Source: an uncultured Nitrososphaerota archaeon (GTDB lineage: Archaea; Asgardarchaeota; Njordarchaeia; Njordarchaeales; Panguiarchaeaceae). From it: a stretch of 16,139 nt of DNA. The translations under genes were made by a program, and so were the position numbers. Position 1 is the first letter of the stretch; every line of letters begins with the position of its first letter. The stretch is taken from NCBI GenBank assembly GCA_964636085.1, contig CAZWPQ010000012.1:41727-57865 (forward strand), read 5' to 3'. The notes under the pieces are model-generated. The model was not told the DNA's origin, did no database searches, and was given only the letters and a program-made list of their open reading frames with translations. Positions 1 to 15,557 of the stretch are shown here, one piece after another.

Positions 1-240
1 GCTAGAGCCCTCATAAACCAGCCAGAAGTACTTTTCTGTGATGAGCCAGTGGCCCAACTAGACGAGAAGATGGCGGACAAAATTCTAAGCGATCTGGTGG
101 AGATCAACAAAGCGGGAACAACAATAATTCTAGCTACGGCATCTGCGACTGTGGCAAACAAGCTAAGGCGATACGCCACAAAGATAGTTCATCTAGAATA
201 TGGAAAAATACAGAATATTGAGACTATAAGAAGGATCTAG
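1..240 (+). CDS. ABC transporter ATP-binding protein, FtsE/LolD-like; C-terminal part only (runs off the window start)
   Basis: Frame +1 is open from base 1: ARALINQPEVLFCDEPVAQLD (Walker B and D-loop) ... GTTIILATAS (H-loop position) ... RYATKIVHLEYGKI, stop TAG at 238-240. The GTG at 49 in the ORF track is internal. Confidence 0.85.
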   Translation, partial: ARALINQPEVLFCDEPVAQLDEKMADKILSDLVEINKAGTTIILATASATVANKLRRYATKIVHLEYGKIQNIETIRRI

Positions 241-362
241 GATATTAGACTCCTACTTTTTTATATTCTTTGCTAGTAGAAACATCCGTTACATTCTTAT
301 CAACCAAGATTTTTTAATTTCATTTCCTCATTATTATAATACCCCCGATCTGGGTGGAGTCC

Positions 363-3300
363 ATGCAGAGGGTCATAATGGCCTCGATCTGCCTTGTCGC
401 TATACTGGTAATCTCATCACTATCAAGTGGGATGGATCTTTCACTTATGCTTAATAATGAACAAAGCAAGGCACAGATTAGAGATATATCAGGCCCAATA
501 CCGTTTTTGAGTAATGAGTACAATAGACTAAATTTCGACGGACTACCGGGAATATTTGTAAGAACAGGAAACATAGGTCTATTACACATATCTATCAAAC
601 CTAGGGGGGTAACAAGGCAGACGAGAGAATGGACTTTCATGGTATATCTCGACGCGGCAAATAACCTAGAGCCATACGGTATTGAAGATTTCCTTGAGAT
701 GTCATCCGTCGGTTCATCATCAGAGGTAGCCATAATAGTTTTAATGGATAGAATAGCGGGCTATGATAGTTCCTATGATGACTGGACAGACACGAGGATA
801 TTTTATGTGGATCCAGGAGAGGGCCCAAATGCTACGAATGCTGATGAGATCTGGGGCGAGAAAAATATGGGCGACCCCCAGACTTTAGTAGATTTTGTAG
901 CTTGGTGCATCAGTAACTATCCTGCTAACCATTATGCATTGATACTCTGGGATCATGGAGGGGGTCTAAGTGGGGTATGTTGGGACGACGACGATGGGGG
1001 CGACAATATAAACCTTTATGAACTCAGAAATGCCCTCGAGACAATATATAATAACTTGGGCATAGTCATAGACATAATAGGGTTTGACGCATGCCTCATG
1101 GGAATGATCGAGGTGGCATATCAATGTAGGAACTACGTAAACTATGTGGTGTTCTCCCAGGAAACTGAGGGTGCAGATGGTTGGCCATATGGCGACATCC
1201 TTGGCCCACTGGTTGCGAACCCAACAATGTCGCCGGCGGATTTTGCTGTGCTTATCGCCCAGAAATACGTTGAGTCTTATAATGGTGGTAGCCAGGGGAC
1301 GGATACGTCTGCTACTCAGTCTGCGATAAACATGTCTGCCCTCACAACGGTGACGTTTAGGAAGCTGGATAGGCTTGTCGGGGAACTCATTAGGAATTAT
1401 GATTCGCTATCGACGGCTATTAGCAATGCTGTGAGTGGGGCAGAAGCATTCTATTATGACGAGGAGAAGGATCTGATACATTTCTTGGAATTGTTAAAGG
1501 GAGAGGTATCCGATCCAAATCTCATTAGTCTTATCGATGAGACCATAGATTCTGTGAATGCATCGATAATGTATGGTGGTCATCTATCCGGACACCCTAA
1601 TGCGTATGGACTATCCGCATACTTCCCATCAGGCTACTATGATGATTATGATGGTGTATTAATGTCTATACATCATCAGTGGGATGAATTTACTAAGAAA
1701 AGGACGGGGAATTCTGTAGATCTCTGGTTTTATGATATAGCCTTTACGGGGTCGGATTCTGATAATAACGGCTATTACGACTCTGGAGTGATATATGTTG
1801 ACTTGGACTCCGATACTGCGTTCGACTTGTTTGTAAGAGTGTATGGGTACGATGGGGTAGATGAGTATCCAATGGGGGAGTCCAGCATAGTTACGGTTAG
1901 TGGAAATGTGTCTAGCGATGTAGTGACCATAGATCTAGAAATGCCTCCGTATAGTGGAATATTCACCATGAGGTTTGAAGTATGTAATTCCTCTGGTAGT
2001 GTAATCAAGCAACTATATTATTACTGTGACGATGATGTATCGGATCTTCCGCTTGAATATCTCCCGGGCTATCCGAAGGTCAGGATAGTGGCTCCAGTCC
2101 CAAATACTCCCGTCTACAACACCGTATTATTGAGGGTCAATGCTAGTGATGAAGATGGAATCTCATGGGTAAAGGTTAAAATAGGAGATACATGGTATTC
2201 GATGACATATAATGCGACCTCTGGGTATTTTGAATACTTGTGGAATACCACTCTCCATGACGATGGTTGGTTCCAGATAATCGTTAATGCTTCGGATACT
2301 GGTGGCAATATAACAAGCACATCAGCGAAATACCTTATAGACAACATAATAATCAGTATACTTTCTCCCAAAAATGGAGATAGAATAAGGAACCGAACAC
2401 AGGTAGTGGTAAATGTTACATTAAGAACATCCATAGTGTCCATTGATAGGGTTACAATGCAACTGAGAAATTATACCTTTAATGGGTCTCTCATACAGCT
2501 ACAATATAATGTGACATCCGGATATTATGAGGGCGAGATAAATACCACGGAGTATAGTGATGGGGTCTATGAAATATATGTCTTTGCCAATCATACCAAT
2601 GGAGGAAGGGATCGCACGAAAATATCAGTGTACATAGACAATGTGATAGCACCAATATTAATTGTGGATGATGACGGTGGGGATTCCTACGAGGAATACT
2701 ACATACAGGCATTAGAGGACATAGGATTTATCCGAGATAAAGACTTTGAATTGTGGAGTGTGATCGCGGACGGTCAGGTAACATCAGATACTCTCTATGG
2801 AAGAAGTGTAGTGATATGGTTTACAGGGGATGATTACTCTAGTACCCTAACAACTAATGATAGGACTGTACTGGCGGAATACTTGGATAATGGGGGTAGC
2901 CTATTTATCTCTGGTCAGGACATAGGATATGACATCTACGATGAGGATGCCATATGGTATGAGACGTATCTTAAAGCCATCTATGAGGCTGATGATACAG
3001 ATGTGGATAATGTGGTTGGGCTTGAGGGAACTATTTTCGAGGGAGTTCAATACTACCTAACTGGTGGGGATGGTGCTAGTAACAACAATTATCCATCTGA
3101 CATTGCCCCAACAGGTGGCTCGATTCTCTCCCTATGTTATGGTGGTGATACAAATCTTGGTGCAGCAGTAACGTATGATGGGACATATAGACTCGTATAT
3201 TTTGCGTTTCCCTTCGAAGCTATAAATAGTGCTACAGATAGATCCGAGTGCATGCTAAAGATATTGGCATTTCTAATGGGTGTGGGGGGATATCCCTCAG

Positions 3301-5117
3301 TAGAATTTATGGAGCCTGAAAATGGTGACGTATTAACTGGAGAAATAACTGTCCGTGTGAACGCGACGGATGAAGATGGATACATTACCATGGTTTCTCT
3401 CTATGTTGATGATATATACTACTGTAACATGACATATAATGCGTCTGATGGGTATTGGTATGCAGAATTAAACGCATCAACACTAGCTTTTGGCGAACAT
3501 AAATTAACTGCAAGGGCAACTGATAATGATGGATTAATAGCCGTAGCCACAATAATAATATACACTAAACAGACCTCAACCTATATTCTAATAGTTGACG
3601 ATGACGGCGGCGCTAATTATGAGACCCTTTACATAGAGTCTCTAGAGAATCTCGGATTCGTGATTGGCCAAGATTTTGATGTCTGGTGCTATTCCACAGA
3701 GGGCGAATTGAGCGCAAAGCTACTATTAGAATACACAGTAGTGATATGGTTTACAGGGGATGACTACTCCTCCACATTATTGTCCAGCGATAGAGAGGCA
3801 TTGGCGCAATATCTCGATGCAGGTGGTAGCCTATTTATCTCTGGTCAGGACATAGGATTCGACATCTATTATGAGGATACCACGTGGTATGAGACGTATC
3901 TCAAGGCCATATATGAGGCTGATGATACAGATGTGGATAATGTGGTTGGGCTTGAGGGAACTATTTTCGAGGGAGTTCAATACTACCTAACTGGTGGGGA
4001 TGGTGCTAGTAACAACAATTATCCATCTGACATTGCCCCAACAGGTGGATCGACGCTTGCGTTGTGTTATGGAGGAGATTCGTCCTTGGGTGCAGCGGTG
4101 GTATATGATGGTACATATAGGTTGGTTTACTTTGCTTTCCCATTTGAAGCGATAAACAAGGCTGATGATAGAAAAGAGTGTATGGGGATAGTCCTAGGAT
4201 TTTTGATAATTGGTTATCCCTTAGAGCCACCAGAAGTGTTGGACTATGCACCGCATGAATTATATCTAGAAGTTCCAAGCGGCACCGAGCTGTACTTTGA
4301 AATATCAGTAGACAAGATAGCAAATATAACTTGGCTAGTTAACGGTACTGTTATGAGGGATGACATGAATGTAAATGCATCGTTCCTAGAAGCGATACTT
4401 GATCCCGGCCTGTGGAACATCACAGTTGTCGCATCCAACAGATATGGTTATACATCGATATCATGGACGATTAGAATATGCATACCGCTCGAGATTGTTG
4501 AATTTTACCCGACACAGCATGACATAAGGGTTCCAGAAAACACATCGGTTATATTTCGGGTGGAGTTTAACCAAAAAGCAAACATAACTTGGTACATAAA
4601 TTCCTCTGAAGCAATGACGGTAGATCAGACACGATTTTCTGAATTCAACACTACTCTAGGCTTTGGGACATGGAACATTACAGTGGTTGGTATCAATGAG
4701 AATGGTTCTGAGTACAAATCATGGATTGTTTTGGTATACAAGCAATTGGAGATACTAGAATATAGTCCCGAACAGTTGAGCATAGAAACTATGGAGGATA
4801 CAGAAGTAACATTTCAAGTAAGATTCAACCAACCAGTTGATGCAATATGGTACATTAATGGGACGGTCAAAAGGGTGGATGAAAACATAATAATTACTAA
4901 TCTCACAACAACATTCGAGGCGGGTATATGGAACATAACTATTGTGGGTAGCAATGAGAATGGCTCTGCGAGTATTTCATGGATTGTCAAGGTAAGTAGC
5001 AAGGGGCATCAAATCCCCACCTTTATATTCGCACTTGCCTTGGTGCTCGTAGCCGCGATAATAATATCTGTCCTGCTAATAACCCATAGGAGAAAGGAAT
5101 ACGAGGGGATTGAGTGA
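363..5117 (+). CDS. Secreted, C-terminally membrane-anchored clostripain-family (peptidase C11) cysteine protease with Ig-like and duplicated alpha/beta accessory domains
   Basis: Signal peptide-like N-terminus. C11 motifs WTFMVYLDAANNL, NMGDPQTL, LILWDHGGG (His codon 954-956), IGFDACLMG (Cys codon 1092-1094) and SQETE. These are followed by Big/Ig-like domains, two ILIVDDDGG domains, three 86-aa beta repeats, a TM helix and an RRKE tail. ATG at 363 follows GGGTGGAG (352-359); GTG at 354 is the alternative start. Confidence 0.9.
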   Translation: MQRVIMASICLVAILVISSLSSGMDLSLMLNNEQSKAQIRDISGPIPFLSNEYNRLNFDGLPGIFVRTGNIGLLHISIKPRGVTRQTREWTFMVYLDAANNLEPYGIEDFLEMSSVGSSSEVAIIVLMDRIAGYDSSYDDWTDTRIFYVDPGEGPNATNADEIWGEKNMGDPQTLVDFVAWCISNYPANHYALILWDHGGGLSGVCWDDDDGGDNINLYELRNALETIYNNLGIVIDIIGFDACLMGMIEVAYQCRNYVNYVVFSQETEGADGWPYGDILGPLVANPTMSPADFAVLIAQKYVESYNGGSQGTDTSATQSAINMSALTTVTFRKLDRLVGELIRNYDSLSTAISNAVSGAEAFYYDEEKDLIHFLELLKGEVSDPNLISLIDETIDSVNASIMYGGHLSGHPNAYGLSAYFPSGYYDDYDGVLMSIHHQWDEFTKKRTGNSVDLWFYDIAFTGSDSDNNGYYDSGVIYVDLDSDTAFDLFVRVYGYDGVDEYPMGESSIVTVSGNVSSDVVTIDLEMPPYSGIFTMRFEVCNSSGSVIKQLYYYCDDDVSDLPLEYLPGYPKVRIVAPVPNTPVYNTVLLRVNASDEDGISWVKVKIGDTWYSMTYNATSGYFEYLWNTTLHDDGWFQIIVNASDTGGNITSTSAKYLIDNIIISILSPKNGDRIRNRTQVVVNVTLRTSIVSIDRVTMQLRNYTFNGSLIQLQYNVTSGYYEGEINTTEYSDGVYEIYVFANHTNGGRDRTKISVYIDNVIAPILIVDDDGGDSYEEYYIQALEDIGFIRDKDFELWSVIADGQVTSDTLYGRSVVIWFTGDDYSSTLTTNDRTVLAEYLDNGGSLFISGQDIGYDIYDEDAIWYETYLKAIYEADDTDVDNVVGLEGTIFEGVQYYLTGGDGASNNNYPSDIAPTGGSILSLCYGGDTNLGAAVTYDGTYRLVYFAFPFEAINSATDRSECMLKILAFLMGVGGYPSVEFMEPENGDVLTGEITVRVNATDEDGYITMVSLYVDDIYYCNMTYNASDGYWYAELNASTLAFGEHKLTARATDNDGLIAVATIIIYTKQTSTYILIVDDDGGANYETLYIESLENLGFVIGQDFDVWCYSTEGELSAKLLLEYTVVIWFTGDDYSSTLLSSDREALAQYLDAGGSLFISGQDIGFDIYYEDTTWYETYLKAIYEADDTDVDNVVGLEGTIFEGVQYYLTGGDGASNNNYPSDIAPTGGSTLALCYGGDSSLGAAVVYDGTYRLVYFAFPFEAINKADDRKECMGIVLGFLIIGYPLEPPEVLDYAPHELYLEVPSGTELYFEISVDKIANITWLVNGTVMRDDMNVNASFLEAILDPGLWNITVVASNRYGYTSISWTIRICIPLEIVEFYPTQHDIRVPENTSVIFRVEFNQKANITWYINSSEAMTVDQTRFSEFNTTLGFGTWNITVVGINENGSEYKSWIVLVYKQLEILEYSPEQLSIETMEDTEVTFQVRFNQPVDAIWYINGTVKRVDENIIITNLTTTFEAGIWNITIVGSNENGSASISWIVKVSSKGHQIPTFIFALALVLVAAIIISVLLITHRRKEYEGIE
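2655..4205 (+). repeat. Intragenic domain duplication at a 930-bp offset (copies ~2655-3275 and ~3585-4205), with a 137-bp perfect core (2982-3118 = 3912-4048)
   Basis: Aligned by eye. Identical blocks are 2808-2833/3738-3763, 2895-2928/3825-3858 and 2982-3118/3912-4048. The copies are separated by one Ig-like domain. Confidence 0.95.
4227..4995 (+). repeat. Three tandem 86-aa (258-bp) PKD/Ig-like protein repeats
   Basis: Repeat motif E(V/I)..(Y/F).P ... F...F/V ... W..N ... G.WNIT(V/I)V..N..G....SW. The Glu codons fall at 4233, 4491 and 4749. Confidence 0.85.
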
Positions 5118-5198: not shown

Positions 5199-5402
5199 TT
5201 GTCCACCACAATAAGGGTTTCAAAGCGTCTTGTCGAGGCTCTAGAGGAAGAGAAGAAACTAATGGGTGCCCGTTCAATAGAAGAGGTTATATTAAATTTG
5301 CTGAGAGAGAAGAGGAAAAGGCTGGCTGAAAAATATTTCGGTATCGATAAGGATAGAATCTCTAGCTTTTCTGAGGAGGACAGACTTGATTCTCGTATTT
5401 GA
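5199..5402 (+). CDS. vapB: VapB-type antitoxin (ribbon-helix-helix-like)
   Basis: 67 aa; N-terminal beta strand TTIRVS followed by two helices (SIEEVILNLL); GGTGA RBS; overlaps the downstream PIN gene. Confidence 0.8.
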   Translation: MSTTIRVSKRLVEALEEEKKLMGARSIEEVILNLLREKRKRLAEKYFGIDKDRISSFSEEDRLDSRI

Positions 5403-5796
5403 CTCTTATGCATGGATCGAATACTTTGCGGGAACAGAAAAAGGAATTATTGTTAAGGATCTCATCGAGAAGGCGGATATTATCTATACCCCCACAGTGG
5501 TGTTGCTAGAAATTGCAAACAAGTACTCCAGAGATGGGTTCAGTCAGAATATAATAAGTGAGCGTCTCCGCATAATACGCGAGATTTCCATTATTGACCG
5601 CATAAGAGATGAAGTACTTTTACTCCTCAGGGAAGCACAGATAGCACTAAACGAGAATGCGAGAAGACTAAATCTGAAAAAGAAACCAAGCATGATCGAT
5701 TATTATATCTACGCCCTAGCAAAAAATTTAAATGCTAGAGTAGTCACTGGAGATCAACATTTTAAAGGACTAAACATCACGATATACCTAGAATAA
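5386..5796 (+). CDS. vapC: VapC PIN-domain ribonuclease toxin
   Basis: LVFDSYAWIEYF ... PTVVLLEI ... SMIDYYIYALA ... VVTGDQHF; all four acidic PIN positions are present. Confidence 0.9.
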   Translation: MILVFDSYAWIEYFAGTEKGIIVKDLIEKADIIYTPTVVLLEIANKYSRDGFSQNIISERLRIIREISIIDRIRDEVLLLLREAQIALNENARRLNLKKKPSMIDYYIYALAKNLNARVVTGDQHFKGLNITIYLE

Positions 5797-5912
5797 CCAC
5801 AATAAGGATTTTCCAGGAGCAACATATTTAATCCAGAGTACGTAGATTTTTTACATGCTTTGACTCTTATAACCGTGCAAAAACATATTAAAATTAGTTT
5901 GAAGTGAGATGT

Positions 5913-7952
5913 ATGAGAGGGGTATTCATAGTAGTCCTACTGTTGCTTGTGGCCTCATGGGGATCCATCGTTAAGCATAGAAATATGTCTTCTGTATGGA
6001 GGGTAAATATAGATAGTGACGAGGTCAATGATGGTTATGTCCATAGCAGGGCGGGGGAAAGTATAATCCTTTTTGTAAACCCAGATTCCGCATTCGAGGC
6101 AATAAATAAGACGATTTCTGGCGCAACATCGTCATTAGACATAATGGTATATGAGATGTGGAGTCTAGATTTTTTTGACATTATTAGTAGTGTTGCCAGC
6201 AGAGGAGTTAAGTGTAGAATTCTGCTGGAAGGCGATCCCTATGGTGATTTAGGAGATTCTTGGAATAGAAATATGGCCTCAATGCTATATGATCTAAATA
6301 CATCTGGTTTGCCAGTATGGATTAGACTTGAGAATACGGATATCCTAGTCCACGCAAAGATGATGATAGTAGATCGCTCCGTAGTAATCCTAGGGAGTGA
6401 GAACTATTTTCCTACATCATATCCTCCTAATACAGACAACATAACCTGTCAGCCATATACAAGGCCAAGTAGGGGCTGGGGAGCAATAATTTACAATAGT
6501 ACGTTCGCCAGGATTTGTGAATCAATATTCGAAGACATATTTCTTAATGACTCCAGAAGCGTAGATTATGACCCATTGGTACACGGTACAGGTACGGCTC
6601 CAGATGAGAATGGAAACTGTTCCATTCCAAAGAGCTTTGATACGACACGAATATATGATTATAGAATATCCCTTGTTTATTCTCCCGTGAATTCATATGA
6701 TACCATTAAATGGCTTATAGATCACGCCAATCACACCATCTTTATAGAGACAATGTATATTAATAATAGTTCATACTATGTTCAAGACCTAATAAATAGG
6801 CTCAAGTCGGCAGTTAATCGTGGTGTCACGGTTCAATTGATATTGGAGGATGATACAAATGTGACGGGAAACTATAGTATGATGGCACCATATCTGAATA
6901 GTCTGGGCATTCATGTTGTCCCAGCGTTCAGTCTGGATGAAGGGATCTTTCTCCATAATAAGGGAATTATTGTTGATGATGAGTATGTCGTAGTGGGTTC
7001 AATTAATTGGTCGGGAGCCTCTCTAACATTAAATACGGAAGTAGGTATACTTATTAGATCTAGAGAGGCAGCATTGTTCTTTAAGGAAGTCTTTGAGTAT
7101 GATTGGAACAAGAGTACAAACAATGTATTTGATACGGATGGCGATGGTCTGAGCGACATATTTGAAATAGAACACAATACGGATCCCTATAAGATCGACA
7201 CAGATGGCGATGGCGTTGATGATTATGGAGAGGTATTTGTGTATGGCACGGACCCCGCAAGGGCTGATGTTATTATTGCTTCTATAATCAGCCCAAATGA
7301 AAATGCATATATCTCAAGTACAGATGTAGAAATAAGATGGGAAATCACACATATAGAATTTGTAACAGGCATAGAAGTCAGGGTTGATTCCAACACCATA
7401 TCCAGTTTATCCCCCGACATAAATTCGTACGTCCTCCATCTATCCGATCAAGCAACACATATTGTGGAAATAATACCTAAAACAAGCACTGGATTCAGTG
7501 TCATATCTGCGAGAGCATATTTGCATATCGATACCCAAGCTCCAGAAGTAACAATAATAAGCCCCAAAAATAATACTAATATCAAAGATATACAATTTAC
7601 ATTAACCGCAAATATACATGATTTCTCTCCCACACAACTAGTGGTAAAACTCAACGGCACGACAATATACCTCGAAAACAGAACCGATACGGATTACAGC
7701 ATATCAATACCAATAACGGTATACAAGAAGGGGACATACCTTATAGATATTGAGGTAGAAGATAAGGCAGGAAACAAAACTAAAAAAACACTAATAATAC
7801 ACATAACCCAATCAGAAACAACACCAACAACCACACAAGCACAGGGAAACATATGGGGCAAGGAAGTACCCATAGAAGTTTTTGTAGGGCTAATAATAAT
7901 CATTATACTCGTAGGATTGGCCGTAATAATCATTTACACCAAAAAATCCTGA
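5913..7952 (+). CDS. Secreted, membrane-anchored phospholipase D-superfamily protein (two HKD motifs) with DxDxDG Ca-binding repeats and Ig-like domains
   Basis: HAKMMIVD (6351-6374) followed by GSEN, and HNKGIIVD (6954-6977) followed by GSINWS. N-terminal signal sequence, DTDGDG repeats (7131-7268), two Ig-like domains, Thr-rich linker, TM helix and KKS tail. ATG 5913 is preferred; GTG 5904 is the alternative. Confidence 0.9.
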   Translation: MRGVFIVVLLLLVASWGSIVKHRNMSSVWRVNIDSDEVNDGYVHSRAGESIILFVNPDSAFEAINKTISGATSSLDIMVYEMWSLDFFDIISSVASRGVKCRILLEGDPYGDLGDSWNRNMASMLYDLNTSGLPVWIRLENTDILVHAKMMIVDRSVVILGSENYFPTSYPPNTDNITCQPYTRPSRGWGAIIYNSTFARICESIFEDIFLNDSRSVDYDPLVHGTGTAPDENGNCSIPKSFDTTRIYDYRISLVYSPVNSYDTIKWLIDHANHTIFIETMYINNSSYYVQDLINRLKSAVNRGVTVQLILEDDTNVTGNYSMMAPYLNSLGIHVVPAFSLDEGIFLHNKGIIVDDEYVVVGSINWSGASLTLNTEVGILIRSREAALFFKEVFEYDWNKSTNNVFDTDGDGLSDIFEIEHNTDPYKIDTDGDGVDDYGEVFVYGTDPARADVIIASIISPNENAYISSTDVEIRWEITHIEFVTGIEVRVDSNTISSLSPDINSYVLHLSDQATHIVEIIPKTSTGFSVISARAYLHIDTQAPEVTIISPKNNTNIKDIQFTLTANIHDFSPTQLVVKLNGTTIYLENRTDTDYSISIPITVYKKGTYLIDIEVEDKAGNKTKKTLIIHITQSETTPTTTQAQGNIWGKEVPIEVFVGLIIIIILVGLAVIIIYTKKS

Positions 7953-8771: not shown

Positions 8772-10145
8772 ATGTTTAAATTGAGAAAACTAATGCTTCT
8801 TCAAGCAGCCATAATCACAGTAATACAGGTCTCAAACCAATACATAATCATACCCAACTATAACCTTATCAAGGCCGATCTAGGCCTGTCAGATTTTATA
8901 CTTGGCAGCATGACTGGCCTATACATTTTCCTATTGGGGATATCGACTGTTATATGGTCCTATATTTCGGATGCTACGGGGGTTAGAAGAAAATGGCTTA
9001 TAGTTTTCACCATTTTCATGGGGGGGTTATTCACATATCTTGTTTTTCTGACCGAGAATATAATATTGTTTTTTATCCTTAGGGTTGCGACTGGGTTTTT
9101 CCTTGGTGCGATATTTCCCCTATTCTACAGTATAATTGCTGATTTCTTCGAGAGTGAGAAGAGAACAAGGGCATATATGTTATGGTACATCATTAGCGGC
9201 GTCGGGATGGGGCTTGGCTTCCTCACAAGCGTTTTATTAGGGGCCTATAAGGGCTGGAGATATCCCATTTACCTGAACGCATTAATGTTGCTATTAATTG
9301 GGACCCCCCTATCTCTAGTTCTGATAGAACCAACCAGAGGGATCGCCGATATAATGGAAGTATATGGCCAAGAGAGCGAGTACAAGTATAGGTTCAGTCT
9401 CTCAGATGCAAAAATAATACTAAGCAATAAAAGCAACATATATGTCGCCGTCGAGGAATTTATATCTACGCTTCCCCAAGGAGTACTCGTGGCATGGATT
9501 ACACAATATGTGGTGAGGGAGTTGGTGGCGACAGAGACTGTCGCATTAATATTTTTAGGGTTAGGAATGGTAGGTGGTCTCTTTGGTGTGATAATAGCGT
9601 ATCTAGCTGATGCATTATATGGAAAAAACCCCAGCTATAGGCCAATGATAGCGTCGATTAGTTCATATGCACAGACAATTTTTCTGGTAATATTTTTGTT
9701 ACTGCCAATAAAACTGAATATAACGGATCCAGACCCAGTAAATTCGGTTAAGCGATTCTTCTCGGTCCTAAAGACGAATATACTAGTCCCTATAGCGATA
9801 TTGATGTTCTTCTTTGGAATGATGTTCAATAGCTCCATAGAACCAATAAAGAATAGTGTCATATCAGATATAAATCTGCCTGAACAGAGAGCCATAGTAG
9901 TATCATCCATAAGTACCGCAGAATTGTTCTTCAGATCAGCAGGAATAGCGATAGCAGGACTAATATCCGACTACACGGGTAGCATAAGAATTACACTAAT
10001 AGCATTCATGCTACTATATATACTCGCAGGAAACCTTTGGTTAAATGTTGTAAGACACTACCGGGAAGACATAGAAAAAACAAGACAAAGACTACTAGAA
10101 AGACTAAACAAAACTGGAATCAAAGAGGAAAACCAGTCCCTCTAA
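8772..10145 (+). CDS. MFS transporter, Spinster-like
   Basis: 457 aa, about 12 hydrophobic segments; motif-A variants SYISDATGVRRK and AYLADALYGK; LRVATG; IADFF...R; GWR; EPTRG after TM6. Confidence 0.9.
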   Translation: MFKLRKLMLLQAAIITVIQVSNQYIIIPNYNLIKADLGLSDFILGSMTGLYIFLLGISTVIWSYISDATGVRRKWLIVFTIFMGGLFTYLVFLTENIILFFILRVATGFFLGAIFPLFYSIIADFFESEKRTRAYMLWYIISGVGMGLGFLTSVLLGAYKGWRYPIYLNALMLLLIGTPLSLVLIEPTRGIADIMEVYGQESEYKYRFSLSDAKIILSNKSNIYVAVEEFISTLPQGVLVAWITQYVVRELVATETVALIFLGLGMVGGLFGVIIAYLADALYGKNPSYRPMIASISSYAQTIFLVIFLLLPIKLNITDPDPVNSVKRFFSVLKTNILVPIAILMFFFGMMFNSSIEPIKNSVISDINLPEQRAIVVSSISTAELFFRSAGIAIAGLISDYTGSIRITLIAFMLLYILAGNLWLNVVRHYREDIEKTRQRLLERLNKTGIKEENQSL

Positions 10146-10322
10146 TTCCATGTAGTCCCTCTATTCCCAAGTTTCCTTTCCTTATTACAGCTTTCTCCTT
10201 GCACCGCACTGATTGACAAAAATGAAATTTATTAATTGTAAGGATAAAAGGATGGAATTAAATGTTTTATTCAAAGTTATTTTGGAGTAATGATGGCTGA
10301 AAGTTTTATGTTGGGGGTCTTT

Positions 10323-11114
10323 ATGCTTAGGATCGAGGGCTTGAAAGCTGGCTATGGTGCAGAAACCATTTTGAAAGACATCAGTGTGGTATTCGACAAA
10401 AAAGCCCTTTTGCTCGGCCCAAACGGAGCTGGCAAAACAACACTATTCAGGACAATATGTGGATTAACTAAGAAGCTATCGGGTAGGGTAATGGTTGGGG
10501 ATATAAATATTGATAATGTGAATGGTGTTCCCGGACTTGTCATAACAAATATCGATGAGATCTATCGTCTGATATATTATGTCGATGTCTATCATCTTGC
10601 AGATATGTATCTGGATCTTCTTGGGGGGGACATGGGTATGTTCCTAGAGGTTGTATCCAAGTTTGGTCTTGATGAGAATTTTCTTCACAAAAGAAAGCTA
10701 TTTGAACTATCTGCTGGACAGAAGAAGATTGTTTTGAACGCCATAGCACTATCGACAAAAGCAAAGGTAAAGCTATTTGACGAACCTTTTGAACAGCTAG
10801 ATCCAAAGAGAAAGGACATATTGATTGAATACTTAGAGAATGATGAGAATGTATTGATAGTATCAACCCATGAAACATGGCTAATTAAGAAGCTAAATCC
10901 AGCATCTTGGGATGTAGCCTTCATGTTTGAGGGAAAGATCTATGGTTCTCTTCCCCTAGAAAAATTATTAAATGCATACTTATTTTTTGGGGAGAAGCCC
11001 AACGCTCTGCTTATTGTGAAGACGGACACAGTAACATTCTCTATAACAATGGACCCTGTGGGAAAACCACTAAGCGACATTTTTTCGTTAGACTACATCT
11101 ATAAGCTAGCTTAG
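10323..11114 (+). CDS. ABC transporter ATP-binding protein (exporter type)
   Basis: Walker A GPNGAGKTT, signature LSAGQ, Walker B KLFDEP, H-loop STH. ATG 10323 follows GGGGGT; ATG 10290 is the alternative. Confidence 0.92.
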   Translation: MLRIEGLKAGYGAETILKDISVVFDKKALLLGPNGAGKTTLFRTICGLTKKLSGRVMVGDINIDNVNGVPGLVITNIDEIYRLIYYVDVYHLADMYLDLLGGDMGMFLEVVSKFGLDENFLHKRKLFELSAGQKKIVLNAIALSTKAKVKLFDEPFEQLDPKRKDILIEYLENDENVLIVSTHETWLIKKLNPASWDVAFMFEGKIYGSLPLEKLLNAYLFFGEKPNALLIVKTDTVTFSITMDPVGKPLSDIFSLDYIYKLA

Positions 11115-11122
11115 GTGTGAAT

Positions 11123-11965
11123 ATGAAGAGGATATTCACCCGTTACTTTAAAGTATCATTGCTTCATTATCTGCTCAACCCGTATTTGTGGTTCTGGGCA
11201 ATATTCTTCATGAGTTTCTGGGCGGCCATGGGTGCCTTTGTGTTTTCTAGGGAAACTCCCCCCGCGTATGTACAATATCACTTTGCCGCAATATTTGGGC
11301 AACTACTAATACTTTGTATAGGATCTATAGCTATATCGATAGTTCAGAGTATTTACTATGCTTCATTCTCTATAAGGTTTGTAACAAAATTTAGCAGACT
11401 AAACTCTGGGAGGTTCTATGTGGAGCATTCTCTAAGCACGATATTGGCGCTAATAGTATTTTCACTAATCCTATGGATGCTCCAATTATCATTCTACTTC
11501 ATCAAGTTTAGAGAGATATATCTCCCCAAGAAGCCATTGGGAACAATACTTGCCTTAGTGTTGTCTGCATGTTTTATGTATGTATTCTCAGTATTTATTA
11601 CATACCTCACCATATGTTCGAGAAAAGGGATGATGAGGTCATTTGCGTCCTATATCCCACTAATGCTTAGCTTTGTCGCCTATGCTGGATTCTGGATAGA
11701 CTTCCAAAAACTATGTCCATTCCTACCATTCTACCTAATATCAGCAATCACATACTATTTCTACATGGATCAAAAACCATACACTGGAGATATTATCAAT
11801 AACTTGATATTCCAATCGCATCATGGATATGTCAATAAGGAAGGAATATTAGAGCCGTCACTGGCGATAATCTCTATGATTGCTTGGATTATTATACTTT
11901 CAATATTATCAATATTCCTAATAAAGAAAGCAAGAGGCATAAGCATAGAAGAACTACAATTATGA
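11123..11965 (+). CDS. ABC-2-type permease (about 6 TM helices)
   Basis: Six or seven hydrophobic segments, immediately after the ATPase stop; AGGTG RBS ahead of ATG 11123 (GTG 11117 is the alternative). Confidence 0.8.
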   Translation: MKRIFTRYFKVSLLHYLLNPYLWFWAIFFMSFWAAMGAFVFSRETPPAYVQYHFAAIFGQLLILCIGSIAISIVQSIYYASFSIRFVTKFSRLNSGRFYVEHSLSTILALIVFSLILWMLQLSFYFIKFREIYLPKKPLGTILALVLSACFMYVFSVFITYLTICSRKGMMRSFASYIPLMLSFVAYAGFWIDFQKLCPFLPFYLISAITYYFYMDQKPYTGDIINNLIFQSHHGYVNKEGILEPSLAIISMIAWIIILSILSIFLIKKARGISIEELQL

Positions 11966-12150: not shown

Positions 12151-13029
12151 ATGTGTAGGTTGTTGGGAATATTAAGCGACAAAAAAATGAAGATAGCGCC
12201 AATATACAAGATGCTGAGTATAGTTCTGAAAATGTTATGTGTTAAATATGGAGAATGTCATGGACACGGTTGCGGGGTTGCTTGGCTATCGGATAACTCA
12301 TGGGTCGTCAGAAAATATGCTCAACCACTCTGGGAGTCCGAAATAATGGAAAACATCATAAGAGAGGTCAAGAGTAAGGCCTATATTATGCATGCTAGGA
12401 AATCTACATTTCCTGTAGACAGCCTTTTGGGTATGCGGGGAGAGAACTCGCACCCTTTCATTCACACCGTAAGAGGGGAACAGTTTGTATTTGCACACAA
12501 TGGTTACGTGGTCTTCGACGAATCAAAAATTAGTGTAAATCCAAGTGAAAAACTCTTAGAGTTTAATGGAAGGAAAGAGTATCTAACTAGTAATGGGACT
12601 GATAGTGAGATCTTCTTTAGGATACTCCTAGCCAGTGTTCTTGATAACGGGTTAAAGGAGCCCGACTGCATTATATGCGCACTGGAGGATATACTCAATG
12701 GGACAATAATTAAAGATTTTAGGGCTATAAACTTTGTGATGGGCAGCGAGAAATACATGTATGCGCTAAGATACTATAACGAAGATTATCCCGATAGTGG
12801 AGCAACCCACACGCTATACTATTTAATGAAAAACCAGCAACATGGATATAAAACTTACGGGGGGCTGTATATCAGTTCGGAGCCATTAACGGGTGACAAA
12901 TGGATAGAGGAAACAAAAAACATTACAGGGGTTCAGGAAGAAAAATGGACTGAGCTTAAAAATCGATACATAATTTATGTTCCTATAGACAATCCCCGCG
13001 AGATACATGTTACTAAACTTCATGTGTGA
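12151..13029 (+). CDS. Class II (Ntn) glutamine amidotransferase, stand-alone YafJ/EgtC-like
   Basis: MCRLLG (Cys2 nucleophile), HARKST, NSHPF, FAHNG, TDSE, INF, SSEPL. Confidence 0.9.
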   Translation: MCRLLGILSDKKMKIAPIYKMLSIVLKMLCVKYGECHGHGCGVAWLSDNSWVVRKYAQPLWESEIMENIIREVKSKAYIMHARKSTFPVDSLLGMRGENSHPFIHTVRGEQFVFAHNGYVVFDESKISVNPSEKLLEFNGRKEYLTSNGTDSEIFFRILLASVLDNGLKEPDCIICALEDILNGTIIKDFRAINFVMGSEKYMYALRYYNEDYPDSGATHTLYYLMKNQQHGYKTYGGLYISSEPLTGDKWIEETKNITGVQEEKWTELKNRYIIYVPIDNPREIHVTKLHV

Positions 13030-13155
13030 ACAGAATCCTAGTGAAAAATAAATTTCTCATAGATAGTTCTTGACATTTTTGTATAAAATTTCTATTCCAA
13101 TTTACTAGTATTTTTGTGGAAAGAAAAAATTATTGGGAATTGGAGGGCCGACATA

Positions 13156-14016
13156 ATGCTTGTTGTGTTTTTGGGTTTGGACAAGGCGGGAAAGACATCA
13201 ATCAAGGTTTATCTTGAAACATTAGATACGGAGAAAGCCAGAAACACTAGGATGAGTAATGGTGTAGAGGCGTATCAGAGGGGTGATGTAAAGTTTGAGG
13301 TTTTTCCGGGACAGTTTGTTCTCAGGATGAATGAGCGTCTTTATGAGGTGTTTTTCCCACATACACACAAGATTGTTTTTACCGTTGATGCGGCCGATAA
13401 AAAGAGGTTTAGTGCCGTGAAGGAATACTGGAGATTTGTCAAGAGGATGATCGAGAAATATTGTGATAGGACACCAAATATCATACTTCTTGCCCATAAG
13501 CAAGACCTAGACGATGCCGTCTCCCCCGCCGAGTTGGAGAAAATAATATTTGACAAGGAGGACTTTTCTAACTACAGCATAGAGACCATAGGTACAAGCA
13601 TTTATGACCCCCTAAGCATGTCTCTACTATTACGTACTATCCATGGGGCCTCTAAGATTGGGATAGAACAGATAGTAGACACATTGAGGGAAAAAACTGG
13701 TAGTGATGTTGCTTTTCTATATGATTCCCATCTATTACCAATAGCGGTCAGCACGAGTGGTAGAGATTCGGAGATAATTACACTAATAAATGACTTAATA
13801 ATCTCCATTGAGAAGATAGGAGAATTGACCATGTTTGCAGGATACTTCAAGGGAAATAGAAACATAGTTGCTGTGAGCGAAAAAATTGGTGAGGATAGGA
13901 TTCTTGTGGGAGTATTTAACTTTAGGGTAAAGCTCAAAGAGGCGCTGGATCTGTGTATGGGTGTGCATAAGCATTACATATCAGAGCTTAGGAGGAGAAT
14001 GTGGGGGGGATGGTAG
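13156..14016 (+). CDS. Rag-like small GTPase with C-terminal roadblock-like domain
   Basis: G1 GLDKAGKTS (13174-13200), G3-like EVFPGQ (13297-13314), G4 HKQD (13495-13506), G5 TSIYD (13594-13608). The ~115-aa C-terminal domain has a helix-beta-beta-helix-beta-beta-beta-helix pattern, starting IEQIVDTLREKTGSDVAFLYD. GGAGG at 13142-13146 supports ATG 13156 over TTG 13114. Confidence 0.85.
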   Translation: MLVVFLGLDKAGKTSIKVYLETLDTEKARNTRMSNGVEAYQRGDVKFEVFPGQFVLRMNERLYEVFFPHTHKIVFTVDAADKKRFSAVKEYWRFVKRMIEKYCDRTPNIILLAHKQDLDDAVSPAELEKIIFDKEDFSNYSIETIGTSIYDPLSMSLLLRTIHGASKIGIEQIVDTLREKTGSDVAFLYDSHLLPIAVSTSGRDSEIITLINDLIISIEKIGELTMFAGYFKGNRNIVAVSEKIGEDRILVGVFNFRVKLKEALDLCMGVHKHYISELRRRMWGGW

Positions 14017-14750
14017 GAATCCTATACACTCTAGCCATAGGCATACTGGGCATAGTAACGGGAATATTAATAGTGCTTGTGTTGTATCTCCTAATTCAGA
14101 AACTAAATCGAAAAAACAGGCTTGCTGAAAGATTAAAAAGACTGTATAGAGAAGGGCCAAAAGTAGAGAAAAGAGTGATAATTTTGGACCCCTATACTAT
14201 TCTCAGGCTTTCTGAGAGCTGGGTAATGGAATCAGACTTATTGGAGCCTGAGCAGGTTTATGCGCTTGAGAGGGTAGGATTTGCGAAAAAAATAGGAAAC
14301 ATTATAATTGCAAATATCGATGCTATAGGGGCCTACATTAATCGTATCAGAAATATACAATTACCTCGCTCGGATACTATTGTGACAGACTATAATGATA
14401 GGCTGGCGGCATATGGAATAATCAGTATAACATTTTTTGGTGTGGATAGTCAGATAGGGCCAGTTTTCAAGTACACTACCGCACTGACCAAGTTGACTAG
14501 GAGGCTTATGGAAGATCAAGAAACCCGGGATAACCTATTCATATTATCTGGCAGAGTAGACGAGCTTATATTGGAGGGATCACGAGTACTTATTCATGAG
14601 ATCAGCGGTGGAGAGAGAGGAATAGAGGGCTATGTAATTGTTGAATTATCCAAGGATGCTGATATAGAAAAAGTGAAAACAAGAATCGCAAGAATAGATA
14701 AAATTCCCTCGTCTACGGAGGAGACAAGGAAATACCTAGAAAAACTATGA
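14001..14750 (+). CDS. Single-pass membrane protein with C-terminal uDENN/longin-like domain
   Basis: N-terminal TM helix followed by a basic segment (positive-inside rule puts the C-terminus in the cytoplasm). The domain from ~14412 starts IISITFFGVDSQIGPVFKY and has an ERG loop at 14613-14621. Overlaps the GTPase stop; GGAGG at 13991-13995; start is GTG 14001 or ATG 14010. The CDS is secure; the fold is inferred. Confidence 0.65.
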   Translation: MGGMVGILYTLAIGILGIVTGILIVLVLYLLIQKLNRKNRLAERLKRLYREGPKVEKRVIILDPYTILRLSESWVMESDLLEPEQVYALERVGFAKKIGNIIIANIDAIGAYINRIRNIQLPRSDTIVTDYNDRLAAYGIISITFFGVDSQIGPVFKYTTALTKLTRRLMEDQETRDNLFILSGRVDELILEGSRVLIHEISGGERGIEGYVIVELSKDADIEKVKTRIARIDKIPSSTEETRKYLEKL

Positions 14751-14832: not shown

Positions 14833-15090
14833 TTGGCTAGAAAGACAACTATAATGCTTGACGATGATATATACATCAAATTAGTGAATATAAGCATCAA
14901 GAAGTATGGGTCTGCAAGACATCTATCGAAAGTTATAAACGATCTTCTATCAGAAGTCCTAAGAAGACCGAAAAGTAAAATTCCAATGGACGAATTGAGA
15001 GAACTACTCTCTGGCCCAAGCCTTGCAGAGGTTACACCCGAGGAATTTGAGGAATTTCGTAAAGACCTTTCAAAAAGGTTTGAATCATGA
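14833..15090 (+). CDS. vapB: VapB-type antitoxin (ribbon-helix-helix)
   Basis: RKTTIMLDDDIY ... LSKVINDLL pattern, acidic C-terminus, ATGA overlap with the PIN gene. Confidence 0.82.
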   Translation: MARKTTIMLDDDIYIKLVNISIKKYGSARHLSKVINDLLSEVLRRPKSKIPMDELRELLSGPSLAEVTPEEFEEFRKDLSKRFES

Positions 15091-15557
15091 TTATCGATAC
15101 TACTTACTTGCTACCTTTAGCGAAAATAAATATTCCAACTAATCTTTTTAATGCAATTCTACAGAAAAAAGTAGACATCAGTATATACGATTTATCCACA
15201 AGCCTTATATCGATCTTCGAGCTCCAAGCAAAAGCAGCAAAATTGGGAATCCCGCATAAATATGTTTCGAAGGCTATAAGATTCATAATGAAATACTTGA
15301 ATGTAATTGATTTTTGGGATGAAGTCATAATAAATATTAGCTTTGATCTACGAAAAATACTACCCGACTACATTGACTGCGTAATAGTCGCAACAGCAAT
15401 AAAATGTGGAGATGTGCTTCTAACAGAGGACTCCAGAATCCACAAAGCCAAAAAGCATATCCACAAAAGCTACGGGATAAAAATAATGGATTATAATCAA
15501 CTTTTAAAAGAACGCCGGCAATACTGGACAAAACCAAACAAAGAACATGAAAAATAG
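15087..15557 (+). CDS. vapC: VapC PIN-domain ribonuclease toxin
   Basis: MIIDTTYLLP ... ISIFEL ... DYIDCVIVATA ... LLTED; acidic residues intact. Confidence 0.9.
   Translation: MIIDTTYLLPLAKINIPTNLFNAILQKKVDISIYDLSTSLISIFELQAKAAKLGIPHKYVSKAIRFIMKYLNVIDFWDEVIINISFDLRKILPDYIDCVIVATAIKCGDVLLTEDSRIHKAKKHIHKSYGIKIMDYNQLLKERRQYWTKPNKEHEK

Follow-up and report, generated by a model that had tools for sequence, protein, structure and literature searches.

Rag GTPases, together with roadblock and longin regulators, tie nutrient signalling to lysosomes in eukaryotes, and the gene analysed here bears on how such a system worked before there were organelles. Roadblock proteins (Ragulator, MglB) and longin proteins (FLCN-FNIP, GATOR1, DENN, TRAPP) tether or regulate their GTPases, and a RagGtr group of Asgard GTPases was reportedly described by Klinger in 2016. 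Asgard Rag-like GTPases are known and have been crystallised, in the case of LokiRagO and LokiRagM from Lokiarchaeota (PDB 8yl2, 8zla, 9m28); the gap concerns their partners and their membrane targeting. Tran et al. 2024 (PMC10933270) described Asgard Rag-like fusions of a GTPase with a roadblock domain (GTPase-RB), often annotated as Arf and structurally Rag-like, and pointed out that the genome layout makes the pairing of GTPase and regulator hard to predict. Vargova et al. (10.1101/2024.02.28.582541) found the eukaryotic Rags nested among Asgard RagGtr sequences, and the part of their Table S3 considered here labels as RagGtr the two-domain Asgard sequences with HKxD and TSIYD motifs, ArfL being short and carrying NKxD. 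Here, we analyse a GTPase gene at positions 13156-14016 of a 16,139-nucleotide stretch of DNA (contig CAZWPQ010000012.1, positions 41,727 to 57,865, assembly GCA_964636085.1), hereafter the window, from an uncultured archaeon of the order Njordarchaeales. The gene encodes an Asgard RagGtr-class GTPase-roadblock protein. Its kind is already known (Klinger 2016, Tran 2024, Vargova 2025, PDB 8yl2, 8zla), and it is a lineage-specific variant with a dedicated membrane partner.

The window GTPase has only about 15-19% identity to LokiRagO and LokiRagM. LokiRagO carries the canonical WDxGGQ at G3, whereas the window family is shorter and has an Asp-less (V/I)(F/I)PGQ. In contrast to the Loki proteins, for which we know of no dedicated membrane partner, the window GTPase has one encoded alongside. 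Set against the eukaryotic Rag/Gtr proteins (RagA-D, Gtr1/Gtr2; PF04670) it is borderline, at 21.9-22.1 bits, with an Arf-like P-loop and without the G3 Asp. It shares GLDxAGKT with Arf, Arl, Sar1 and SR-beta (PF00025, PF09439), which also give its best Pfam and PDB sequence scores and on whose G fold it superposes at 1.8-1.9 A. However, it has HKQD instead of NKxD, a TSIYD G5, no WDxGGQ and an added roadblock domain, and it lacks the N-terminal amphipathic helix or myristoylation site of these proteins. It is of the same class as the GTPase-RB fusions of Tran et al. 2024 (PMC10933270), but its subfamily is more restricted than the published RagGtr and GTPase-RB proteins, being found in its own genus and one other family among 200 Asgard genomes. 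In the literature searched we found neither a fixed pairing with a membrane-anchored winged-helix/longin-like protein, nor the lineage-specific subfamily and its Asp-less G3, and the rows of Table S3 of Vargova et al. considered here include none for the window family.

The GTPase gene and its motifs

The open reading frame (ORF) starts at ATG 13156 and ends with a TAG stop at 14014-14016 on the + strand, giving a product of 286 aa. The same ORF has an alternative upstream start, TTG 13114. Judging from the sequence, ATG 13156 is the likely start, because a GGAGGG box lies 8 nt upstream of it and all homologues begin at the same ML(V/I)(V/I)F position. Two minus-strand ORFs inside the gene (13222-13503 and 13602-13937) were treated as shadow ORFs. 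The features of the gene are as follows.

13082-13089, + strand: TATA-like tataaaat in the AT-rich spacer 5' of the gene, a candidate archaeal promoter read from the sequence
13142-13147, + strand: Shine-Dalgarno-like box GGAGGG, 8 nt ahead of ATG 13156
13156-14016, + strand: coding sequence of the Rag-like GTPase-roadblock fusion, 286 aa (from the ORF, Pfam, 11 homologues and an AlphaFold2 model)
13156-13641, + strand: G domain, residues 1-162, starting at strand beta1 (MLVVF) without an N-terminal amphipathic helix
13174-13197, + strand: G1/P-loop GLDKAGKT, residues 7-14, Arf/Sar-like in sequence, with G7, L8, D9, A11, G12 and K13 invariant
13303-13314, + strand: G3/switch II FPGQ, residues 50-53, with P51, G52 and Q53 invariant and the canonical DxxG Asp missing
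13495-13506, + strand: G4 HKQD, residues 114-117, with His in place of the usual Asn; A113, H114, K115, Q116 and D117 invariant
13594-13608, + strand: G5 TSIYD, residues 147-151 (GTSIYD 146-151), with T147, I149 and D151 invariant
13651-14013, + strand: roadblock domain, residues 166-286, by the topology of the AlphaFold2 model, with a conserved R-x-R-x-W tail at its end

Public data hold 11 full-length homologues at 37-71% identity (12 aligned sequences with the window protein), one of which is annotated as 'ADP-ribosylation factor-like protein [Candidatus Njordarchaeota archaeon]'. Every motif quoted in an earlier reading of this DNA, made from the sequence alone (hereafter the sequence-only reading), is present and is invariant or nearly so in these homologues; the invariance of the motif residues shows that the gene and its motifs are real and under selection. 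Switch I T31 is also invariant in the window family, and G1, Q53, G4 and G5 are intact. The exception is G3, which reads (E/D/R/S)(V/I)(F/I)PGQ across the family, so that V or I occupies the position of the Mg-coordinating Asp and the canonical Asp of the Ras-superfamily DxxG is absent. The FPGQ itself was correctly read, but the Asp that opens the DFPGQ of RagC is missing. The DxxG motif is general to the Ras superfamily and does not define Rags. Q53 is likely the catalytic Gln, and the alignment with Arf6 has only a 3-residue gap after PGQ, with no large insert.

Past the domain junction, the stretch IEQIVDTLREKTGSDVAFLYD (residues 170-190) contains the invariant L177 and D190, and D190, P195 and W283 are invariant among 18 family members. 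The sequence-only reading had taken this stretch as a sign that the similarity to Rags runs on into the roadblock. On its own the motif is not significant: the A.vaFlyD that follows the helix is a generic alpha1-beta1 feature of roadblock domains, since the best PDB sequence match of the C-terminal-domain profile is MglB and not a Rag. The protein ends in RRRMWGGW and carries no lipidation motif. The R-x-R-x-W tail (13993-14013, residues 280-286) is modelled with low confidence; its W283 is kept in the family, including the paralogue types of contigs 4 and 5 described below, and the tail could be a docking or membrane-contact motif.

Membership in the Asgard RagGtr class

His in G4 and TSI(Y/W)D are hallmarks of Rag proteins, and the window family invariantly has HKxD at G4 and TSI(Y/W/F)D at G5. 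Among the traits of the Arf family, the GTPase has the PF00025 match and the GLDxAGKT P-loop; an NKxD G4, a WDxGGQ G3, an N-terminal amphipathic helix or myristoyl-Gly, and a placement with Arf-like proteins are all absent. A survey of motifs in about 280 retrieved relatives showed that two-domain Asgard proteins have a common signature made of GLDxxGKT, HKxD, TSI(Y/F/H)D and a C-terminal domain of about 120 aa. HKxD marks this two-domain clade, whereas the Arf-like set has NKxD, and GLDxxGKT occurs in most Asgard two-domain Rag-like proteins and in LokiRagO. An Asp-less G3, (V/I)(F/I/T)PGQ, together with a fixed AHKQD is particular to the window family and to a type of Asgard Rag-like protein of 320-346 aa; the Loki-type two-domain proteins have WDxGGQ instead. 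A profile search gave 587 matches, and the 120 listed all come from Loki-, Hel-, Hod-, Thor- and Hermod-archaeota and are mostly annotated 'Arf-like'. The Arf-type P-loop noted in the sequence-only reading is indeed there, as it commonly is in Asgard RagGtr proteins, and its use of HKxD and TSIYD as Rag hallmarks is backed by the alignment with LokiRagO and by the RagGtr-labelled sequences in the part of Table S3 of Vargova et al. considered here. The mix of an Arf P-loop with Rag G4 and G5 motifs is what Asgard RagGtr proteins normally have and does not mark a chimera, and Pfam-based annotation therefore mislabels such proteins as Arf-like.

The window GTPase exemplifies this. Its Pfam matches are Arf (63 bits, residues 3-146), SRPRB (33.6) and Gtr1_RagA (21.9, cut-off 22). 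PF04670 scored 22.1 bits in the genome scan, again borderline relative to the cut-off of 22, precomputed matches to this family are listed for 6 of the 11 homologues, and an NCBIfam scan was uninformative. The C-terminal half, searched as a single sequence against the PDB, had no significant match to a Rag chain or to any other. Pfam searches with the C-terminal domains of the 18 family members found no roadblock family (no Robl_LC7) and scattered weak matches, one of them to LAMTOR5 (E-value 0.0034), and the profile of these 18 domains had as its best PDB match the roadblock protein MglB, with a weak E-value of 0.014.

In sequence, it takes profiles to detect that the similarity crosses the domain junction; the structure shows it as well. 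When the window family was combined with the 320-346-aa type (profile A5), the top PDB match was LokiRagO (86.8 bits, E-value 1.6e-23, positions 3-275 of 289), and the matches to LokiRagM (69.7 bits, positions 3-284) and human RagA (60.7 bits, positions 2-267) also spanned both domains, while Arf proteins scored 61-73 bits and aligned only over positions 1-132. With a second profile (A3), made from the wider Asgard two-domain family, LokiRagO scored 252 bits, LokiRagM 192, RagA 146 and Gtr1 130-134 (both domains), RagC 113-118 and Gtr2 102-111; Arl and Arf, at about 100-108 bits, fell below RagA and Gtr1. The C-terminal domain, compared by hhalign, is homologous to that of the PF04670-positive 320-346-aa type (98% probability, E-value 2e-13) and of the Loki-type two-domain proteins (91%, E-value 9e-7). 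These comparisons agree with the trees of the G domain, and the shared history of both domains argues against an independent fusion. In a language-model comparison, Asgard Arf+Gtr1_RagA clusters are the nearest neighbours, and clusters of eukaryotic Rag and Gtr2 come next.

Trees were made from the G domain alone of Asgard sequences, leaving out eukaryotic Rag and MglA, with an Arf-like set defined by motifs and length rather than by names. In FastTree (133 rows) the window family forms a clade with support 98, joined by the 320-346-aa type (95) and then by the Loki-type two-domain proteins (90), and the two-domain proteins stand opposite the Arf-like and short HKxD proteins. IQ-TREE (LG+C20+F+G4, 68 rows) recovered the same branching order with supports 99, 86 and 89. 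Constraining the family to group with the Arf-like set lowered the log-likelihood by 44.7 units, and this topology was rejected by the approximately unbiased (AU) test (p-AU 0.022).

The AlphaFold2 model, made from the 12-sequence alignment, has a predicted local distance difference test score (pLDDT) of 86 and a predicted template modelling score of 0.80. In the model the G domain is followed, in the same chain, by a second domain (residues 170-284) in the order alpha-beta-beta-alpha-beta-beta-beta-alpha, which is the roadblock topology. DSSP assigns it helix 170-181, strands 185-189 and 195-200, helix 205-221, strands 226-231, 235-244 and 247-254, and helix 260-284, the order of a roadblock/LC7 sandwich, for which sequence support is weak. 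In a Foldseek search of the PDB, full-length matches of about 300 columns rank first, all at E-values of about 1e-15; the top ones are human RagA (6s6a_B, 6u62_B), S. pombe Gtr1 (8fw5_D) and LokiRagO (8yl2, TM-score 0.67-0.69), and LokiRagM ('monomeric Rag-like small GTPase') is also among them. Structural comparison of the model gave scores of 23.8 with LokiRagO (268 residues, 3.6 A), 22.6 with RagC (270 residues, 4.6 A) and 21.2 with RagA (270 residues, 5.3 A), and its C-terminal domain superposes on theirs. With Arf1, Arf6 and Arl the score was about 22, for the G domain only (154 residues, 1.8-1.9 A). In the predicted fold, the G domain very closely resembles Arf, and the protein as a whole has the shape of a Rag.

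Taken together, the G-domain trees, the C-terminal profile comparison and the structure support full-length homology to Rag-type GTPases, as the sequence-only reading had proposed. Grouping with Arf-like clades and a C-terminal domain of another fold were the outcomes at odds with that proposal; the former is rejected by the AU test above, and the latter is not what the model shows. The more specific label 'RagC/D-type' finds no support, given that RagA and Gtr1 score as well as or better than RagC and Gtr2, that TSIYD, HKxD and GLDxAGKT are general to hundreds of Asgard RagGtr proteins, and that the G3 Asp of RagC is missing.

A membrane protein encoded with the GTPase

The sequence-only reading considered that the GTPase either homodimerises or pairs with a paralogue encoded elsewhere. 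A third option, which it missed, is the adjacent membrane protein with a longin/roadblock-like domain.

14001-14750, + strand: coding sequence of the partner, a single-pass membrane protein of 249 aa (start GTG 14001 or ATG 14010), overlapping the GTPase stop and preceded by AGGAGG

The overlapping stop and start indicate, at the level of the sequence, a translationally coupled pair. The partner has no relatives in Pfam, NCBIfam or a word-index search (which returned only itself), and its relatives came from genome searches. Its N-terminus is hydrophobic over about 27 residues, after which basic residues come. The AlphaFold2 model of the partner, made with eight orthologues (pLDDT 80), has a long N-terminal helix (2-50), a winged-helix-like unit (64-117) and a C-domain (140-248) ordered beta-beta-alpha-beta-beta-beta-alpha-alpha with a short helix ahead of it. 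In an exhaustive structural search this C-domain falls in the longin/roadblock superfold, with matches to the AP2 mu longin (8.6), the LC7 roadblock (8.0), the VAMP7 longin (7.9), a Lokiarchaeal longin (7.5), Npr2/3 of SEACIT (7.4), LAMTOR (7.1), C9orf72-SMCR8 (7.1) and Lst4 (6.9). IclR-type regulators, the top Foldseek matches of the partner (TM-score 0.26-0.30, root-mean-square deviation about 10 A), were set aside as an architectural likeness and not homology, the modelled likeness being read as that of a winged helix plus an alpha/beta sensor-like domain.

The gene pair is conserved. A GTPase gene followed directly by a partner gene is also found for the contig-35 paralogue of the same genome and at six loci in three further genomes of the genus, the two genes overlapping by 4-32 nt, abutting, or lying no more than 13 nt apart. 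These seven loci are L002, L012, L013, L014, L041, L043 and L052; at L016 the order of the pair is reversed. In the other family of the order, a divergent partner homologue lies upstream of the GTPase instead. The contig-5 type of paralogue has at its 3' side a gene for a multi-pass membrane protein, which is homologous to the partner in its C-terminal part (E-value 4e-17). Identities of GTPases and partners co-vary over pairs (r = 0.83, the data being non-independent), which fits a duplication of the pair as a unit. Among the 200 genomes, the partner profile was found only in the window's own genus (4 of 4 genomes) and a sister family (6 of 7). These observations make the partner a candidate tether or regulator of the GTPase. 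The lineage thus has three paralogous versions of a fixed pair, in which a single GTPase goes with a single membrane-anchored longin/roadblock-like protein; with two small proteins involved, the question of partnering can be tested directly.

Several stand-alone ORFs, about 137-142 aa long, match the partner in its C-terminal longin/roadblock-like domain only (E-values 1e-10 to 1e-12); they lie at G000:C9:44276-44638 in the host genome and on G021:C11, G095:C8 and G042:C16 in others. It is possible that they are soluble paralogues that could pair with the partner.

Proposed mechanism and alternative explanations

We favour, with somewhat better than even confidence, a reading in which this RagGtr-class GTPase of a Njordarchaeales-restricted subfamily is brought to the membrane by its co-encoded single-pass partner, acting as a tether and/or as a GTPase-activating protein (GAP) or guanine nucleotide exchange factor (GEF). 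The GTPase would bind and hydrolyse GTP through K13/T14, T31, Q53 and HKQD despite the absent G3 Asp. Having neither a lipid anchor nor an amphipathic helix itself, it would rely on the co-translated partner to reach the cell membrane on the cytoplasmic side. The cytoplasmic longin/roadblock-like domain of the partner may then pair with the roadblock domain of the GTPase or dock on its G domain, and the partner may act as a tether, as a GAP or GEF, or as both, in parallel with Ragulator, the FLCN/GATOR1 longins and MglB acting on their own GTPases. A bolder version, which we put forward tentatively and regard as doubtful, sees in the locus a minimal archaeal counterpart of Rag-Ragulator/folliculin, in which a dedicated integral-membrane partner recruits and switches a Rag-like GTPase, docking on it with its cytoplasmic winged-helix and longin/roadblock-like domains, with at least three co-diverging pairs per genome. 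If true, several separately addressable membrane switches per cell could result, and with them a primitive membrane-identity or nutrient/transport-coupled signalling code older than eukaryotic organelles.

Several observations weigh against the partner-based reading or against the class assignment under it. An hhalign comparison of the C-terminal domain of the GTPase with the C-domain of the partner found no sequence relationship, and one orthologue (locus L015) has no adjoining partner. The PDB titles describe LokiRagO as a homotetramer and LokiRagM as a monomer, so that self-association without a partner is possible. The Pfam score of Arf is far above that of Gtr1_RagA, and PDB sequence searches with the protein or a family-only profile returned only Arf, Arl and Sar among the best 60 matches, over the G domain only. 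The AU test does not separate the family's placements relative to two other Asgard groups, the support of 89-90 for the two-domain clade is not decisive, and it is profiles, structure and published trees that tie the family to eukaryotic Rags.

The quaternary structures of the Loki proteins raise the alternative that a GTPase of this same class forms a homodimer or homotetramer through its own roadblock domain, the membrane neighbour being only an operon companion or a downstream effector. LokiRagO (8yl2), titled a homotetramer, is indeed the closest solved structure, several Asgard Rag-like architectures appear as homodimers in the models of Tran et al. 2024 (PMC10933270), and the dissimilarity in sequence of the C-terminal domains of GTPase and partner points the same way. 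We nevertheless consider this explanation unlikely, as translational coupling, conservation of the pair over paralogues and species, and co-duplication with co-divergence suggest a stoichiometric relationship, and the GTPase itself lacks a membrane anchor. In eukaryotes, Rags are obligate heterodimers built from paralogues, and with four paralogues in the host genome (54%, 39%, 35% and 35% identity) the window GTPase might instead form a Rag-style heterodimer with one encoded elsewhere, as modelled for a pair of Rag-like genes in one MK-D1 operon (Tran et al. 2024, PMC10933270). This we hold to be improbable, since the paralogues lie on separate contigs with no GTPase genes adjacent, three carry a membrane partner of their own, and copy numbers vary in the genus (3-7 matches per genome).

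The remaining alternatives concern the nature of the GTPase. That Arf gives the best Pfam and PDB sequence match, that the P-loop is GLDxAGKT and that the G domain superposes on Arf at 1.9 A would fit an Arf-family GTPase which gained a roadblock independently and became Rag-like by convergence. We give this very little credence: a clade with the Arf-like set is rejected by the AU test, HKQD and TSIYD are not Arf motifs, the N-terminal amphipathic helix is missing, PF04670-positive Asgard proteins have a homologous C-terminal domain, both domains are spanned when profiles are aligned to LokiRagO and RagA, and the Arf-type P-loop is common to Asgard RagGtr proteins. Just as remote is a polarity module of the MglA-MglB type in one chain, a GTPase with its own roadblock GAP. 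A G3 ending in PGQ without Asp recalls MglA, and the C-terminal-domain profile has MglB (E-value 0.014) as its best PDB sequence match. However, no MglA chain is found among the best 50 structural matches (Foldseek, VIA) or the best 60 PDB sequence matches, the G1, G4 and G5 motifs are those of Asgard RagGtr, and published work keeps MglA1 and MglA2-5 apart from RagGtr (10.1101/2024.02.28.582541).

Paralogues and distribution

The search for a second Rag-like gene that the sequence-only reading suggested gave four further paralogues in the host genome (2.4 Mb, 102 contigs, 83% complete), on contigs 35, 5, 4 and 1; each is on a contig of its own, so that no GTPase gene adjoins another.

Contig 35: 54% identity, about 283 aa (longest ORF 289 aa), Arf 52.7 bits, Gtr1_RagA 18.4
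Contig 5: 39% identity, 284 aa, Arf 62.0, Gtr1_RagA 29.0
Contig 4: 35% identity, 286 aa, Arf 56.9, Gtr1_RagA 18.5
Contig 1: 35% identity, 329 aa, Gtr1_RagA 52.7, Arf 35.9

The genomes of the genus have 3-7 matches each. Among the 200 Asgard genomes sampled, the tight 286-aa family was found only in the genus, in its four other genomes, and in a single further family within the order. The window gene is a member of this subfamily of about 286 aa, which is restricted to Njordarchaeales, counts three members in the host genome and probably arose by duplication from, or beside, the pan-Asgard Rag-like gene of 320-346 aa.

The contig-1 copy is the clearest Rag/Gtr match in the host genome and the only one that scores Gtr1_RagA above Arf. 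It is of the 320-346-aa type, the sister or parent group of the window family in the trees. Like the window GTPase, it and its pan-Asgard orthologues have the Asp-less PGQ, AHKQD, TSIY and a homologous roadblock domain (E-value 2e-13); unlike the window GTPase, this type passes PF04670 clearly (52.7 bits, above the 35.9 of Arf), is longer, occurs in several Asgard families, and pairs with a soluble LAEFD..EGP protein of about 250-360 aa rather than with a membrane protein. The soluble protein is encoded directly 3' of the GTPase at the contig-1 locus (L005:445-2196) and at L017-L021, begins with '(L/V)(A/V)EFD..(E/K)GP(V/I)', and the pair is kept in other Asgard families; its start motif resembles the GP motif of FLCN/SMCR8-type GAP longins (PMC12290439). 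The contig-4 type, in turn, adjoins a gene for an MgtE-like divalent-cation transporter in two genomes (L004:2542-3750 and L047:2388-3605). This gene is downstream in one genome and upstream in the other, at gaps of about 190 nt (L004) and 80 nt (L047), a looser linkage than in the other GTPase pairs.

Other genes of the window

The window has about 38-44% G+C, and its long ORFs are mostly on the + strand. Apart from the GTPase and its partner, the following genes were recognised.

354-5117, + strand: ORF of 1587 aa with a clostripain-like N-terminal region (C11 peptidase; TIGR02806, 80.8 bits, far under the equivalog cut-off), probably a large secreted or surface protease-like protein
5386-5796, + strand: PIN-domain gene, the first of two
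5904-7952, + strand: protein of 682 aa with two phospholipase-D-like HKD domains, bacterial TSP3 repeats and Ig-like (Big_7/Big_13) domains
8772-11965, + strand: MFS transporter (8772-10145), then an ABC ATPase (10290-11114), then an abutting ORF of 282 aa (11117-11965) without family matches, possibly the permease of the ABC ATPase
12151-13029, + strand: gene resembling class-II glutamine amidotransferases (Pfam GATase_4, 50 bits), immediately 5' of the GTPase gene
14833-15557, + strand: small ORF overlapping the second PIN-domain gene (15087-15557), which together look like a VapBC-type toxin-antitoxin pair

A gene similar to the amidotransferase-like one (L015:2427-3251, - strand) adjoins the orthologous GTPase in another genome of the genus, at the sole locus without a membrane partner.

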